Source: Octopus vulgaris
Lineage: Eukaryota
Direction: 5' to 3'
Length of the DNA stretch: 64,000 bases
NCBI GenBank assembly: GCA_951406725.2
Contig: OX597828.1
Location: forward strand, 28,768,001-28,832,000
Of the stretch, positions 2,629 to 53,546 are shown in pieces (position 1 is the stretch's first letter; each line of letters starts with the position of its first letter). The notes under the pieces were generated by a model, which saw only the letters and a program-made list of their open reading frames with translations, ran no database searches and had not been told where the DNA came from. A program made the translations under genes and the position numbers.

Positions 2629-3048
2629 GATACAAGTTAATATGTGAAAATCAGAATACGAATTTTGAGAAAAGTATCTTAAACGGTTGGTACTTAAAGA
2701 GGGATGTACACAAGTTTTGCTGATAGCAAGGTTAATCGCGAACGTTGCATAAAAATTCGCAATGAGCTCAGTTAATTTCTTGAGCTCTACAAAGAATTGA
2801 AGCGCCATAAGCATCAAACAGTTTTGAATAAGTTCTTTGTCTCTCAAATAGATGTTGATGATGATAAACTATAAGCTAGAAGACAGTGCCTATCATCCTT
2901 CCAGTAACACCAATACCACCACAAGAACTAGCGTTCCTCACACGGCAGAAAATATATTTTATTGTAAGAAGGCATGGTATAACGATATTGCGGTTCTAAT
3001 TTGTTCCCTAACGTATTCCTCTTCAAATATTTTCTAGATACACAAATA

Positions 3049-3457: not shown

Positions 3458-3632
3458 TGTGTGTATTTGTGTGTGACCCCTAGCATTGCTTGACAACCGA
3501 TGCTGGTGTGTTTATGTCCCCGTTACTTAGCGGTTCGGCAAAGAGACCGATAGAATAAGTACTGGGCTTACAAAAGAATAAGTTCCGGGGTCGAGTTGCT
3601 CGATTAAAGGCGGTGCTCCAGCATGGCCGCTT
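3049..3632 (+). mobile_element. SINE family A copy interrupted by a family B SINE
   Basis: Family A sequence at 3049-3180 resumes at ~3455-3632 after an oppositely oriented family B insertion in its internal (TA)n. Confidence 0.85.
3183..3413 (-). mobile_element. tRNA-derived SINE family B (Nin/Deu-domain-like)
   Basis: Minus strand reads AAGGCGGCGAGCTGG...GAGTTCAAATTCCGCCGAGGTCGACTTTGCCTTTCATCCTTTCGGGGTCGATAAATTAAGTACCAG, which resembles the Nin/Deu conserved domain. Many copies in the window. Confidence 0.88.
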
Positions 3633-11610: not shown

Positions 11611-11824
11611 CTCTACTCTTTACTCTTTTACTTGTTTCAGTCATTTGACTGCGGCCATGCTGGAGCACCGCCTTTAGTCGAGCAAATCGACCCCGGGACT
11701 TATTCTTTGTAAGCCCAGTACTTATTCTATCGGTCTCTTTTTGCCGAACCGCTAAGTGACGGGGACGTAAACACACCAGCATCGGTTGTCAAGCAATGCT
11801 AGGGGGACAAACACAGACACACAA

Positions 11825-12343: not shown

Positions 12344-13929
12344 TATTTCAAATCTATGTCATAGCCACTCCCAAAGGCTCGTTTTATATTCATTTTTGAT
12401 CTTGTTTCAGGGACTGGGGGTACTTCCATGAGGGGTTTAGTCAAGGAAATCTAACCCAGCACTTCGCTTTTCTTTCTTTCTTTTTGGAAGCTTTCTGTTG
12501 GTCTTATACAAAACAATACCGGCTGTTAAGTGGTGGTGAAGGGACACACACACACACACACGACGGGCTTCCGCGCAGTTTCCGCCTACCAAATTCGCCC
12601 TAAAGACTGCCCTGGGCTATAGCACAAGTCATTTCCCCAAGATGCTGTACAGTAAGACTGAACCTAGAACCACATGGTTACAGAGCAAGCTTCTAAATCA
12701 CAAAGTCATTTTTGCGCCTATAATTTTCCTTTCCGTAATTAAAAGCAAAAATTTAATTTAGAATAACTTTGAAATCTTTTTGTAAAAAAAGAAAAAAAAT
12801 TAAAACCATGAGTAATTCATCTCAGAGTTATTTCCCTTGTTTCTTCCGTCCTCGCTCGGTTCGTTCCATTTCCATACAGCACACACATACACACATCGTG
12901 ATTTCGTATTGTTGCTTGTGAGTCACAAAGCAGCAAACAACAGTAGTGGAAGAAGAACACAGAGGCAAACGGTTCTCAGTTATGATTTCCATGGTGGGGT
13001 GAGGGGCAGAAAAACAGCGACCATCTAAGTAGTCACCCAGTTTGCTAGAAATAACAGTCAAATCTACCTCAAATCACACTTTAAACAAGATTGAACCTAC
13101 ATAAGATAACAGAGTACTAGATAGCTAAAAATAAATACTGGGTGGTCACAGTAGGAATGTCTGATCAAGGCTGACATAGGTTATATAACAATAACAACTT
13201 TAGAATGTTTCTGTTTTTGTGTTGCGAGTTCGAACCTTGCAGCAGTCGGCTTTGCTTTTTATCTTTTCAGGGTAAGTTTCCGCAGAAATTTTCCACTGCT
13301 CCGATGATGGAGATTTGTAGAAGCGGTGGAGCACCGGTGAATCTCAATACGATTCCCCGGTTTGCTAGAAATAACAGTCAAATCTCTCCCAAGTGCACAC
13401 ACTCTCTCGCCTTGAAGAAAGGAAAGTCTATTTTGGATAATTAGTTCTTGACATGATTGTAAACCGATTTGATGGACATGGTCGGAAGGCATTTAAGCAT
13501 AGAATTGTTTTATTAGATACGACCTGGGATTAAACAATAATAATTTTGTCTTCCATACTCTTGGGTTCGGTTAAAATAAGTACCAGCTAAATACTGGTGT
13601 TGATATAATCGAATAACACACTCCCCACAAATTTCAGACGTGCCTATAGTAGGAAGGTGGCCCCGAGGTCGACTTTGCCTTTCGTCCTTCTGAAGTCGAT
13701 AAAATAAGTACCAGTTGAACACTCGGGTCGACAGTTTTATATTTAAGAGATGAGGAATTATGTACATTATTTACATTAACAACAGAATGAGGACAAATAT
13801 CCGTCAAATGTAAATAATGTAAATAATGTACTGGGGTCGACGTAATCGACTTACCTGCTCCCCGATATTGCTGGCCTAGTGCAAAAATTTGAAACCATTA
13901 CTACTAGATCATTATTATTATTATTATTA

Positions 13930-14183
13930 TCTATTTATCACAGGTTTTGTTGGAACCCCTGGAGTCTTGCATGCGTAGCGGGTTTACTACCTGCAGCCTA
14001 CGGTACCATGCTATTCGTTCTTTTCAACTATCTTAAAAAAATTCCTGATTGTTCTGGCCGTGCCAGGGAGGCAAAACTTTTGTAACAGTTCTGCTTGGCA
14101 CTCTATTCTGATTTCTTTTGTATCCCCCCTGATGCCATCTGATACTGTCCCCAAAGACCCAACAATAATTAGCACTATCTTCA
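13930..14183 (-). mobile_element. Short 5'-truncated 3' end of an R4/Dong-type LINE
   Basis: Diverged duplicate of ~14197-14455, bounded by (TTA)n on both sides. The minus strand encodes the IVLIIVGSLGTVS C-terminal RLE region. Confidence 0.8.
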
Positions 14184-14196
14184 TTATTATTATTAT

Positions 14197-14494
14197 TTCT
14201 TTTTATCGTAGGTTTTGTTGGAACTCCTGGAGCCTTGCATGCGTAGCGGGCTTACTACCTGCAGCCTTCGGTACCATGCTATCCGTTCTTTTCAGCTCTC
14301 TTATACTTTCTTGATTATTCTGGCCATGCTAAGGAGGTAAACCTTTTGTAACAGTTCTACTGGGCACTCTATTCCAATTTCCTTTATATCTTCCTTGATG
14401 CCTTCTGATACTGTTCCCAAGAACCCAACAATAATTGGCATTATCTTCACTGTCTTCATTTTCCATGGCCGGACTATTTCGTACTTAAGAGGGT

Positions 14495-22468: not shown

Positions 22469-22862
22469 TGTGTGGTAAGTAGCTTGTTTACCAACCACAT
22501 GGTTCCGGGTTCAATCCCACGGCGTGGCACCTTGGGCAAGTGTCTTCTACTATAGCCTCGGGTCGACCAAAGCCTTGTGAGTGGATTTGGTAGACGGAAA
22601 CTGAAAGAAGCCCGTCGTATATATGTATATATGTAAATATGTGTGTGCGTGTTTGTTTGTGTGCCTGTGTTTGTCCCCCTAGCATTGCTTGACAACTGAT
22701 GATGGTGTGTTTATATCCCCGTCACCTAGCGGTTCGGCAAAAGAGACCGATAGAATAAGTACTGGGCTAACAAAGAATAAGTCCCGGGGTCGAGTTGCTC
22801 GATTAAAGGCGGTGCTCCAGCATGGCCGCAGTCAAAATGACTGAAACAAGTAAAAAGAAGAA
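22469..22862 (+). mobile_element. SINE family A
   Basis: Colinear with 2211-2628, lacking the first ~15 nt. Confidence 0.9.
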
Positions 22863-24907: not shown

Positions 24908-25255
24908 TTGGTTCCGGGTTCAGTCCCACTGTGTGGCACCTTGGTCAAGTGTCTTTCACTATAGCCTCGGGCCGACCAAAGCCTTGTGAGTGGATTTGGT
25001 AGGCGGAAACTGAAAGAAGCCCGTCGTGTATATATGTGTGTGTGTGTTTATGTCTGTCTCCCCACTCTTCATTGCTTGACAACCGATGTTGGTGTGTTTA
25101 CGTATCCGTCACTCAGCGGTTCGGCAAAAAAGACCGATAACATAAGTACTAAGCTTACAAAGAATAAGTCCTGGGGTCGATTTATTCGACTAAAAAGGCA
25201 CGGCTCCAGCATGGCCGCAGTCAAATGACTGAAACAAGTAAAAGTATAAAAGAGT
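24908..25255 (+). mobile_element. SINE family A (5'-truncated), preceded by an older 3' fragment at ~24740-24900
   Basis: Colinear with 2211-2628. Confidence 0.85.
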
Positions 25256-25911: not shown

Positions 25912-26080
25912 ATTTGTCCCTGACCCATCGCATTACAACCGATCTTGGTGTGTTCACACCCCCGTAACTTAGCGGTTCGGCATTAGAGTCCGATAGAATA
26001 AGTACCAGGTTTACAAAGAATAAGTCCAGGGGTCGATTTCTTCGACTGAAAAGCAGTCAAAATGAATGAAACAAGTAAAA

Positions 26081-26135
<55 letters not shown>

Positions 26136-26218
26136 GGTCCCGGGTTGATTCGGGGTTAACCACAGTAAATAAGGTACTCAATACATAGCAGAGTAAAATT
26201 AATTTATTATATAGAAGG

Positions 26219-26269
26219 AGCTTCTACAGGACTAGAACTGTTTCATTCAAGAGAAATCTTCAGGAAGCT
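26219..26269 (-). ncRNA. Minimal type I hammerhead ribozyme motif (Penelope/retrozyme type)
   Basis: Minus strand AGCUUC-CUGAAGA-U(UUC UCUU GAA)U-GAAA-CAG UUCUAGUC CUG-UA-GAAGCU. Perfect 6-bp helix I, intact CUGANGA/GAAA core, paired helix III and a GUA triplet. Confidence 0.8.
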
Positions 26270-26824
26270 GAATTATATATATATATATATAATTATATAT
26301 ATATATATATATATAATTATATATATATATATATAATTATTATTATTATTATTATTTGAGGTAATATTATTCCTAACTTACAGGGGAAAATTCAATTTAG
26401 AAATACTAAATCAAATTTCAGAAAATATAATATATATATATAAAAATTAGAAAAAAGCACCTTTTATCAATTCAAAACGAACAATTAAATTACGCTATCT
26501 AGAAAATTACATATAATAGAAATATTAAAATTAAAATAACAATAATATATATATATACACACACACACATTCATACACAACCTAATCTCAAATTGTACGT
26601 ATTTAATTTTTTTATCAATTATAGAATAACACCATTTTTCCTTATTACGGGACTAAATACAACATAAGATTTAATTTATATCCACACACGAACATCAGAT
26701 TCTGCACGATTCGTGTGTACAGTTGACTCATTGCTCAATTTGCTTTTAGCCGTTGTCTTGTATACAGGTTGCGATCTGGTATGCATTTTCAAATACTACA
26801 GTTATTTTGGGTTTATATTGGGAT

Positions 26825-45975: not shown

Positions 45976-46484
45976 ATCACATTCTTTCTAATATAGGGAT
46001 CAAGCCTGAAATTTGTGGGAAGCGTGTCAGCCGATTACTTCGACCCTAGAATGCAACTGGTACTTATTTTATTGACTCCAAAAGGATGAAAGGCAAAGTA
46101 CTGTCTGTTCATTTACACCCACCCCCTTCCATGCTGTTTCTTTTAAGACGATACCAAGTCATTTAAAATATTTCTTTTGAGTAAGGTGAATTTGAACTCA
46201 GAGCGTAAAGACGGACGAAATGCCGTTAAGCATTTTGTCCGGCATGCTGACGATTTTGCCGGTCTTTCCTACTCTAGGCACAGGGCCTGATATTTTGAGG
46301 GTGGGAGGTTGTTGATTATCTCGATTTCAGTGCTCAACTGATATTTTACCGATCACCAAATGATGGAAAGCAAAGTCAACATCGGAAGAATTTGAACTCA
46401 GAGCGTGGAGAGCCGGAAGAAATGCTGCGAAGCATTGTGCCCTTCACGCTTATAATCCTGCCGAATTACTGCACGTATATATCT

Positions 46485-46769
46485 TTTACTTGCTTCACTC
46501 ATTTGACTGTGGCCATGCTGGAGCACCACCTTTTTAGTCGAGCAAATCGACCCCAGGACTTATTCTTTGTAAGCCCAGTACTTATACTATCGGTCTCTTT
46601 TGCCGAACAGCTATGTTACGGGGACGTTAACACACCAGCATCGGTTGTCAAGCGATGTTGGGGGAACAAACACAGACACACAAACATATACACATACACA
46701 TACATACATACACTTGCCCAAGGTGCCACGCAGTGGGACTGAACCCGGAACCACACAGCCACTCCTACG

Positions 46770-48300: not shown

Positions 48301-48534
48301 AATACAGTGTACATTTAAACACAAAAGAGATACCCAAAGGATAGGATATCTGACTCACTAGAAAGAGCAGTTAAACTCCAAGCCACTAATTGTTGTAATT
48401 CCGAAAGAAGTTTTTATTTTTCAATCACTTTCGGAATTACAACAATTAGTGGCTTGGAGTTTAACTGCTCTTTCTATTGAGTCAGATATCCTATCCTTTG
48501 GGTATCTCATTTGTGTTTAAATGTACACTGTATT
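48301..48534. repeat. Near-perfect palindrome (~107-bp arms, ~20-nt loop)
   Basis: AATACAGTGTACATTTAAACAC...GTTGTAATTCCGAAAG pairs with CTTTCGGAATTACAAC...GTGTTTAAATGTACACTGTATT, about 2 mismatches. Confidence 0.95.
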
Positions 48535-48635: not shown

Positions 48636-49040
48636 AGGCGCATGTGGTTGCTAACCAACCACATGGTTCTGGGTTCAGTCCCACTGCGTGGCATCTTGGG
48701 CAAGTGTCTTCTACTATGGCCCCGGGCCGACCAATGCCTTGTGAGTGGATTTGGTAGACGGAAACTGAAAGAAGCCTATCGTATATATGTATATATATAT
48801 ATGTGTGTATGTGTGTGTGTTTGTGTTTGTCCCCCTAGCATTGCTTGACAACCGATGCTGGTGTATTTACGTCCCCGTCACTTAGCGGTTCGGCAAAAGA
48901 GACCGATAGAATATGTACTGGGCTTACAAAGAATAAGTCCCGGGGTCGATTTGATCGACTAAAGGCGGTGCTCCAGCATGGCCGCAGTCAAATGACTGAA
49001 ACAAGTAAAAGAGTAAAAGAGTAAATAAAAGAGTAAAAGA
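48636..49040 (+). mobile_element. SINE family A
   Basis: Colinear with 2211-2628, with a (AAAGAGT)n tail. Confidence 0.9.
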
Positions 49041-49257: not shown

Positions 49258-49416
49258 TTAATAATATATATATATATATTATATTAAATTAGAGATAAAA
49301 CCACTATTAGGCAAATCAAACAATGAAAAACATAAGCCAATACATAAAAATAATTAATTTATATTATTTTAAATATATATCAAAAGTATTAAAAGTTTCA
49401 TAAAAGATAATGAGTA

Positions 49417-49491
49417 AAACACTACGATCGTTTCATGGCTGTCCAATTCGTAATAATTCGAGTTATGGTTACAGTCAATCTTCAGGTAATT
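49417..49491 (-). ncRNA. Minimal type I hammerhead motif with palindromic helix III
   Basis: Minus strand AAUUAC-CUGAAGA-U UGACUGU...ACAGCCA U-GAAAC GAUC GUA-GUGUUU. Intact core. The ACGAUCGU palindrome is typical of dimer-acting Penelope hammerheads. Confidence 0.72.
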
Positions 49492-49539
49492 GAAATATTT
49501 ATCTTAGCGAGGTTTATGTCCTGTGCGGGGAAAATTTGC

Positions 49540-51995: not shown

Positions 51996-52526
51996 TGCAA
52001 ACACAAACACTTTTTTTTTTACCGTTTTCTATGTTTAACATCACCTAACCGTAACAATCCCGTCAAGTGTGCTGCGAGGCTACGAAACGAACAGGCGCTA
52101 ACTCGCATTGAGTTGGCGTTTATTAATTTGCCGAGGTTTGAAGATTCGTTTCATGCTTTGTAAACATTGATGTCTTAATGTTTTATTCTTCTGTGTTATT
52201 GTTGTTGTATTCATTGTGTTATTGCTGTTGTGATGGTGTTGGCTTTCTTGGTTTTTTGCGGTGTTGATGTTGGTGCTGTTATAGGTGCCAGAGTTAGTAA
52301 AGGAATGGTGCGCGGATTTGCCATTGCTGTTGTTTTGCTTTGACTGGTTCGCCGCTGTTAACATACATTGTATAGTTCTCAGTTGTGCATAAACAAGGTC
52401 GTTTGGCGGCTCAGAAAGGATATATATATATATATATATATATATAATTGATTGAGAAAATATTAATCCAAACTTACAGGGAAAAAAATTCAATTTAGAA
52501 TTACTAAATCAAATTTCACACAATAT

Positions 52527-52589
<63 letters not shown>

Positions 52590-52798
52590 TGTGTGTGTGT
52601 GTGTTATATTGTGTGAAATTTGATTTAGTGTTTTACTCATTATCTTTTATTAAATACTTTTAATACTTTTGATATATATTTAAAATAATATAAATTAATT
52701 AATTTTATGTATTGGCTTAAGTTTTTCATTGTTTGATTTGCCTAATAGTGGTTTTATCTCTAATTTAATATAATATATATATATATATATAATATTTA

Positions 52799-52842
<44 letters not shown>

Positions 52843-52846
<4 letters not shown>

Positions 52847-53198
52847 GTAGAAAAAAAACACCTTCTATCAATTCAAAATGATTAATTAAATTACACCATC
52901 TCGAAAATTACATATAATAGAAATATTAAAATTAAAATAACAATAAAATACCAATGATTAAGTAAATTGTAAAAAAAAATAATAAAAACGTATATAATTG
53001 GTATATATAAACGTCACGATCTCAGATCAAATCACTTGCTATGCGAGTATATCTCCGTAATACTATTTTTTTGCAATTTACTTAATCATTGGTATTTTAT
53101 TGTTTTTTAATTTTAATATTTCTATTATATGTAATTTTCTAGATGGTGAAAATTAATTGTTCATTTTGAATTGATAAAAGTTGTTTTTTTCTAATTTT
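52843..53198. repeat. Inverted repeat (~135-bp arms, ~85-bp spacer) of a dispersed AT-rich element
   Basis: 52848-52980 pairs with 53065-53193. A single arm of the same family lies at 26445-26545. Confidence 0.9.
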
Positions 53199-53546
53199 AT
53201 TTTATATATATATATATATGTGTGTGTACATACAAGTGCATATGTGTATGCATATATACACACACACATACATTCATATGCATATATATATATATGTATA
53301 TATATATTTATTTATTTGTGTGTGTACATACATGTGCATATGTGTATGCATATACATACACACATAAATTCATATGCATATATATATATATGAATATATA
53401 TATGCATGTTTGTGCACACATATTTATATACAAAAACGTGCACATACACATGTACACACACACATATATTGACACAAGCACACACACACGTGTGTCTGTA
53501 TTTAGTTGATTAATTGTACATTGCTGTTTTTTTTAATATTTTACAG

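Follow-up and report, generated by a model that had tools for sequence, protein, structure and literature searches.

Does the type I hammerhead motif on the minus strand at 26219-26269 of the window, as we call the whole 64-kb stretch of DNA analysed, mark an active ribozyme, and what kind of element carries it? The motif, recognized by sequence reading and by conservation in its family, is numbered here +1 to +51, with +1 at 26269. Helix I is open-ended and joins 26264-26269 to 26219-26224 (+1 to +6 with +46 to +51) through six Watson-Crick pairs. It is followed by the core CUGAAGA (26257-26263), by U10.1 (26256), which faces U11.1 (26245) in a U-U pair closing helix II, and by helix II itself, which has only 3 bp (26253-26255 with 26246-26248; two A-U and one C-G) and a 4-nt loop. 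After GAAA (26241-26244), helix III pairs 26238-26241 with 26226-26229 in 4 bp, A15.1-U16.1 included, around an 8-nt loop 3 with a palindromic centre (26230-26237), and cleavage is predicted at a GUA triplet, between 26225 and 26224 (+45/+46). The type I core (C3-A9, G12-A14, A15.1-U16.1 and an NUH triplet) is complete and all three helices are present, with U-U in place of the canonical G10.1-C11.1 pair. A preliminary description had listed the 6-bp helix I, the full core, the 4-bp helix III and the GUA cut at this position, all of which the sequence confirms.

A hammerhead descriptor matched the window only at 26219-26269 and found nothing in 300 locally shuffled windows, so the motif is more than a chance arrangement. 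Rfam returned no hammerhead in the cassette (26133-26272) even at E<=10, its Hammerhead_1 model staying unmatched, and over the whole window the 150 matches listed of 276 were all microRNA-family rows over repeats, below the gathering score. The U-U pair was considered as the cause of the miss and rejected: at the gathering threshold Rfam missed the sense-strand hammerheads of relatives closed by G-C (14/14) as it did those closed by U-U (14/14), which makes the miss uninformative about U-U. The Hydra-clade hammerheads tried here escape standard Rfam scans.

Parent element and clade

The motif lies in a 137-bp, 5'-truncated pseudo-LTR copy of a Hydra-clade Penelope-like element (26133-26269, minus strand), which differs at 0 of 137 bases from positions 889-1025 of an intact copy, L075. 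A degraded copy is rejected on this identity, and the earlier term near-intact hammerhead was right about the hammerhead and understated its state; the U-U pair is therefore the state of the family and not decay. The 32-nt 3' end has 4,299 exact matches in the genome (control, 0), the exact 51-nt motif occurs 1,343 times, and five places, counting the one in the window, match the cassette over all its 140 bases. Truncated arms in inverted orientation, partial tandems and TA targets are features of the sister loci. L075 consists of a repeat, a 713-aa ORF, a 2.4-kb microsatellite-rich 3' UTR and a second repeat, in a unit of 4,784 bp; the full ORF is present in two of the 20 loci fetched. Among L071-L090, several copies are intact except that their ORFs stop at shared lengths (501 aa for eight ORFs and 234 aa for four), so that frameshifts may have arisen repeatedly, or the assembly may be in error, at identical positions.

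The 713-aa protein (P0001) carries DKT, YRDD, CxCx5C, a YIG motif, CxxC and CxH. Its predicted fold has a mean pLDDT of 85.8, and the top five structural matches are telomerase RTs. A Pfam hmmscan of P0001 gave no RT or GIY-YIG match, and a sequence search of the PDB gave nothing useful; some homologues carry precomputed PF00078 or PF01541, which we take to be RVT_1 and GIY-YIG, respectively. P0001 reads as a telomerase-like RT with a C-terminal GIY-YIG-type endonuclease, the endonuclease being called from motifs. The Hydra clade is defined by DKT, a CxCx5C linker, a GIY-YIG core without CCHH, CxxC and CxH (Craig et al. 2021, PMC8557442; this and the other papers are cited from the parts available of each), and P0001 shows all of these features. 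The ORF is 40% identical over 713 columns to that of a metagenome locus, L219, in which the Hydra-clade RWK motif aligns with RWR of P0001, and the L219 hammerhead with its flanks reads the same as the Penelope-1_NV row in the available part of File S2 of Craig et al. The FastTree phylogeny held relatives only and no outgroup, and the tie to a named Hydra member runs through the L219 hammerhead and the 40% identity. In all 92 sampled copies the 3' end is followed by a TA-rich tract, as expected of (TA)n insertion, and the Penelope-like traits of pseudo-LTRs, partial tandems, inverted 5'-truncated copies and a one-sided tail are all seen. Judged by these sequence features, the host element, which the preliminary description had not recognized, is a young Hydra-clade Penelope-like retrotransposon, probably a new member of the clade. 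The Naiad clade, raised by an N-terminal fragment, was rejected since the N-terminal endonuclease and DKA are missing and a hammerhead is present; Hydra-1_oBim, the listed octopus family, was excluded by its different hammerhead. No relative was found in the viral contigs searched.

The element resembles other Hydra members (Penelope-1_NV, Penelope-1_HM, Hydra-1_aJap; PMC8557442, in the parts available) in its single DKT ORF, CxCx5C linker, C-terminal GIY-YIG-type domain without CCHH, CxxC and CxH, as well as in (TA)n targeting, a hammerhead near the 3' end and U-U closure. It differs from them in its 4.8-kb unit, against under 3 kb, because of the microsatellite-filled 3' UTR, and in RWR for RWK, a loop 3 of 8 nt against 1-3 nt, and more than 4,000 copies. 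With the minimal or dimeric Penelope-like hammerheads of metazoans, for which low in vitro activity is reported (Cervera and De la Pena 2014, PMC4209133), it shares a type I motif in a pseudo-LTR, mostly dispersed truncated copies and a palindromic loop 3; unlike that class as there described, it has no G10.1-C11.1 pair, no extra base after A9, a short helix II, and a helix III closable in a monomer. Poseidon of Anolis carolinensis (Frangieh et al. 2024, PMC11167929) is similar in its two internal priming sites bounding a one-sided tail, its AT-rich target and unprocessed RNA as main template; it belongs to another clade, and according to the passages available its hammerhead overlaps the start codon, whereas ours ends ~130 nt before the ATG. 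Non-LTR retrozymes, that is, tandem hammerhead repeats without an ORF, likewise place a type I hammerhead in a dispersed animal repeat, and have been proposed to derive from pseudo-LTRs (bioRxiv 10.64898/2026.07.22.740005, as far as available). Unlike them, the window copy stands alone as a truncated insertion whose parent, L075, is autonomous, and the window has no tandem hammerhead units; a short three-unit array occurs only in L014. A likely retrozyme was seen elsewhere: two canonical matches to Rfam Hammerhead_1 (L251:2636-2682 and 2917-2963, minus strand), 281 bp apart, lie on the opposite strand beside a Hydra-type element.

Closing pair of helix II

The U-U pair at 10.1-11.1 is present in all 54 ungapped family copies. 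Among 77 metagenome loci with a related ORF, a sense-strand hammerhead was found in 40 and an antisense one in 3, and the closing pair of the 40 is U-U in 18, G-C in 15, G-U in 3 and A-U in 3, with an extra base in 1. On a FastTree phylogeny of 43 proteins the U-U label changes 7 times, at least 4 of the changes being forced by starred branches; the labels were hand-set from a list with 16 G-C, the tree has no outgroup so that gain and loss are not separable, and a long-branch warning applies to two rows from the element's own genome. By our own reading of the available File S2 rows, 14 of 25 listed Hydra families are U-U-closed (PMC8557442); the available passages of that paper contain no remark on this closure. 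The earlier suggestion that U-U may be a lineage-specific variant is hence refuted: it is a Hydra-clade trait, already contained in a published supplementary table. Perreault et al. 2011 (PMC3088659, in the parts available) report U10.1-U11.1 among natural hammerheads, as the mismatch that 10.1-11.1 tolerates best; our motif carries the same mismatch, which is described there as a rare core variation and in the Hydra clade is the commonest state. Whatever the closing pair, the next pair is U-A or C-G, with the pyrimidine 5', in 39 of 40 Hydra-type hammerheads (L211-L287).

Insertion ends, and proposed transcription start and cleavage

Direct-arm starts were compared among 92 copies (the first 93 listed 3'-end matches, on contig C1, without L005, which was already included). 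Twenty-one start exactly at +1, 49 in +1..+32, 5 in -30..-1, 28 past -160, and a single one near the cut, in +43..+50. The boundary is one-sided, with 26 ends in +2..+30 against 5 in -30..-1 (p 0.0002). Since 5' ends pile up at +1..+32, short copies appear to come mostly from RNA that retained the 5' half of the ribozyme. Inverted arms end at +60..+72 in 57 of 60 matches, the other 3 being spurious upstream matches, and in sister copies they begin at or near an AT-rich site at +65..+72 (26198-26205 in the window, minus strand), a putative second priming site of reverse transcription of which the window copy retains no arm. Both arms have alleles in common in 42 of 43 cases and so were likely copied from one RNA. 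In vitro, the Penelope-like element of the anole uses two internal priming sites, nicks both strands, takes unprocessed RNA and shows protein-dependent cleavage (PMC11167929, in the parts available), and the two priming sites and one-RNA arms seen here fit that mechanism.

Junctions exactly at +1 with AGCT number 654 genome-wide, against 13 rows for the same 4-mer at +48, by patterns that differ in stringency; the AGCT palindrome favours +1 junctions whatever the RNA end, which counts against reading them as a start site. Two search patterns gave 80 and 59 junctions genome-wide in which both arms lie close to the cut. Thirteen of the 59 carry filler; three were dropped as point changes and one was re-read, and in the 10 true filler junctions the inverted arm ends at +44..+46 in 9 and at +47..+52 in 1 (binomial p 0.0004, hand-curated). 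This cluster hints at rare cleavage in vivo, with the qualification that snap-back on the hairpin described below can explain several fillers. A search for junctions with one arm ending at the cut was dominated by the 6-nt homology of helix I, and in 34 long copies, a sample with little power, no clear switch between subfamily haplotypes was seen at the cut site. In L302 the same cleavage-triplet change is found in both arms of one insertion, which indicates that the template RNA itself had a non-canonical triplet.

The TATAAA of L075 begins 29 nt upstream of +1. This TATA box varies at 1 of 6 positions in the 34 long copies, themselves selected by a pattern that contains it. The hammerheads of 33 relatives were compared, L243 among them, after removal of 4 near-duplicates, of 3 loci whose flanks were short and of the 1 with an extra base. 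Nine of the 33 have TATAWA at 35-46 nt upstream of C3 and 17 have TATA there, counts that none of 500 free-band rotations reached; in 24 of the 33, TATAWA is not in the band. This arrangement leads us to infer a transcription start at +1, the first base of helix I. Against such a TATA-based start stands the TATA-less internal promoter of Penelope of D. virilis (PMC2377424, in the parts available). The literature searched, in which supplements were partly covered, held no report of a TATA-driven start at the 5' edge of a Hydra-clade hammerhead.

The hammerhead core is conserved in the family, with at least 52 of 54 copies agreeing at each core position except N7, so that the lack of conservation named beforehand as evidence against a ribozyme was not observed. 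Of the variants common to at least 2 of the 34 long copies, none falls on the 38 core and stem positions, while 5 of the 13 N7 and loop positions carry one (Fisher p 0.0005). In the same copies, 14 of the 23 positions in -23..-1 are variable, as are 6 of the 87 in +52..+138 (p 0.18 against core and stems); +52..+138 being also well conserved, the conservation is not specific to the ribozyme. The 5' extension of helix I is not conserved, and -23..-1 diverge between subfamilies, which bears on the loop 1-loop 2 tertiary contact typical of fast hammerheads. ViennaRNA predicts a competing 8-bp hairpin at 26210-26228 (+42..+60, minus strand), of conserved sequence in the family, which spans the cut site together with helix I's 3' strand. 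In predictions that leave out tertiary contacts and include no known active hammerhead as a control, the three-helix fold has P 1.4e-3 in the 51-mer, 2.8e-4 in +1..+140 (hairpin over the cut, P 0.79) and 5.8e-4 in the 26130-26280 construct proposed earlier for transcription (hairpin P 0.63); the hairpin has P 0.63-0.98 in constructs with 3' flank to +140 or beyond, and the helix II pairs are weak (P 0.05-0.07 in the 51-mer). Folding z-scores were non-significant (motif 0.17, cassette -0.94). Fast cleavage as a monomer is doubtful on these predictions, because the hairpin is expected to hide the cut and because 49 of the 92 copies start at or inside the 5' edge, against 1 near the cut. Seven sequencing runs, guessed to be RNA, gave contigs that cover stretches of the element with no start or cut site seen; two of these contigs span the cut (X10 909-1020, X11 845-1029). 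Loose ends of X10 at C-rich sites upstream of +1 resemble what we take to be a template-switch adapter, and were rejected as true RNA ends and read as artefacts.

Taken as a whole, the data make it probable that the window holds a pseudo-LTR hammerhead in a truncated insertion, a dead-end copy of uncleaved RNA, from an element that starts transcription at +1 and whose ribozyme is a slow, conditional cutter. Intact elements would begin their RNA at +1, with the ribozyme as its first 51 nt. At a (TA)n tract, each DNA strand would be nicked by the RT/endonuclease, and a single RNA would be primed at two positions, +137 and ~+68; both cDNAs would run off the RNA 5' end at +1 and then join, giving short palindromic insertions, of which the window copy would have kept the direct arm only. 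The ribozyme, dimer- or protein-assisted, would be restrained by its weak helix II and the downstream hairpin. In the least certain step, cutting in both repeats would yield a unit-length RNA that is circularised and copied for more than one round into promoter-bearing copies. Among 30 ORF-bearing copies, by hand tally, 22 run past the TATA region, 4 start at -20..+2 and 4 later; the 22 require a template without an end at +1, which a unit RNA from +1 cannot supply. For these more-than-unit copies we favour the route of Cervera and De la Pena (PMC4209133, in the parts available), in which RNA is cleaved and ligated into a circle, over read-through of tandem copies, though the two are not separable; such tandems do exist (L090, 5,193 bp apart). 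Head-to-tail repeat arrays were also noted at L014:1280-1795 (three units) and L011:1501-2043; they are likely template jumps at the RNA 5' end and a possible origin of retrozyme-like tandems.

That the motif is an efficient monomeric ribozyme, its 8-nt loop letting helix III close so that transcripts cut themselves quickly, was the reading of the preliminary description and seems unlikely. The loop is indeed exceptional, since all 40 relatives have a loop of 0-3 nt and the available published rows for Hydra one of 1-3 nt; U-U is the mismatch best tolerated at its position (PMC3088659, as available), and the +44..+46 filler cluster would suit cutting. These points are outweighed by the scarcity of near-cut junctions (~59-80 genome-wide against 654 at +1 alone), by snap-back as a source of several fillers, by the contigs X10 and X11 that span the cut, by a predicted hammerhead fold of P ~1e-3 to 1e-5, by the missing conserved helix I extension for a loop 1-loop 2 contact, and by the palindromic centre kept in loop 3, a dimer signature. 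We hold it to be quite unlikely that the motif no longer cuts and is kept by overlap with an initiator, a 5' UTR or a protein-binding region of the element RNA. All of +1..+138 is conserved, hammerhead mutants had no effect on in vitro insertion of the anole element (PMC11167929), and Naiad elements spread without canonical hammerheads (both from the parts of the literature available). Yet variation at N7 and the loops spares the core and stems; elements with proteins ~40% identical keep core, stems and NUH triplet while the stem sequences change; hammerheads in the 77 related loci are on the sense strand in 40 and antisense in 3; and the junctions of L293, L309 and L311 stop precisely at +46 and carry fillers without a match in their surroundings.

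The least probable reading retains the element assignment and ascribes the +1 pile-up to AGCT microhomology or an RT pause instead of a transcription start. Microhomology is used at junctions wherever present, and the helix I strands provide a built-in 6-nt homology; however, the boundary is one-sided, the same palindrome at +48 is used ~50 times less, a TATA box stands at canonical spacing and divergence rises sharply upstream of +1, and an RT would presumably pause at the 3' edge of a helix, not past it. We therefore return to a start at +1 and a slow, conditional cutter. Building on it, one may tentatively picture a Hydra-clade switch, itself doubtful, in which a TATA box sets the start at the hammerhead's first base, uncut RNA is translated and leaves only 137-bp palindromic junk, and RNA cut in both repeats passes through a circle into more-than-unit, promoter-bearing copies. 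Were this true, the ratio of short to long insertions would be a fossil record of ribozyme activity, and the U-U pair and downstream hairpin would tune the ribozyme rate. According to Craig et al. 2021 (PMC8557442, in the parts available) it is not yet clear what hammerheads do in these elements; this young family, with its intact ORF and with predicted positions for the RNA start (+1), the cut (+46) and priming (~+68 and +137), makes the question testable. Earlier publications already cover pseudo-LTR hammerheads and the low activity of these, the targeting of (TA)n by Hydra-clade elements, and U-U variants.

The window locus and neighbouring repeats

The claim that 26219-26269 is the best candidate for an active ribozyme finds no support at this locus, which holds one of 1,343 identical 51-mers, starts at +1 without the family's TATA box upstream, and belongs to a class of short copies made mostly from uncut RNA with an active fold predicted to be rare. 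It is likely a promoterless dead-end copy of uncleaved RNA and not a special candidate; as one among thousands of dead-end copies, the locus itself matters little, and the family matters more. Three bases at the junction (26270-26272, minus strand) are not part of the element and are likely the stub of an inverted arm: matching bases precede +1 in L001, L003, L004 and L005, each with a long inverted arm. The cassette had been described as bounded by pure (TA)n on both sides, which holds for the target tract at the element's 3' end, a pure (AT)25 (26083-26132), while the tract at the 5' end (26274-26335) is interrupted, with 86% matches, and runs into (ATT)n.

The (AT)n target directly follows a SINE-like repeat (25916-26083), a member of a group with at least eight long copies in the window at 74-85% identity; the others lie at 2440-2611, 3484-3603, 11624-11798, 22683-22855, 25070-25244, 46482-46657 and 48839-49012. 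An older AT-rich repeat (26345-26550, 52443-52540, 52823-52950 and 53093-53219; 86-90% identity) flanks both the cassette and a fragment at 52626-52751, partly resembles the tail of the second family described next, and may itself be what remains of another Penelope-like element and serve as a target.

A truncated pseudo-LTR of a second, related family lies on the minus strand at 49300-49520 with its own U-U-closed hammerhead, whose core (49426-49485) has a long helix II and a palindromic helix III. The closure noted earlier at 49417-49491 is thus real, in a different family that gives no BLASTN match to the cassette. This family is also young, and ORF remnants in a sister locus (L346) are 31-40% identical to P0001. 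Two 3' fragments of it, at 52626-52751 and 49301-49424, are 96% identical in opposite orientation. The window further contains a 266-bp unit in two tandem copies with 85% matches (13914-14449), and a long near-perfect hairpin of ~50 bp (48357-48478), possibly a small inverted-repeat element, for which the best Rfam match was MIR7127 at 61 bits against a gathering score of 100.
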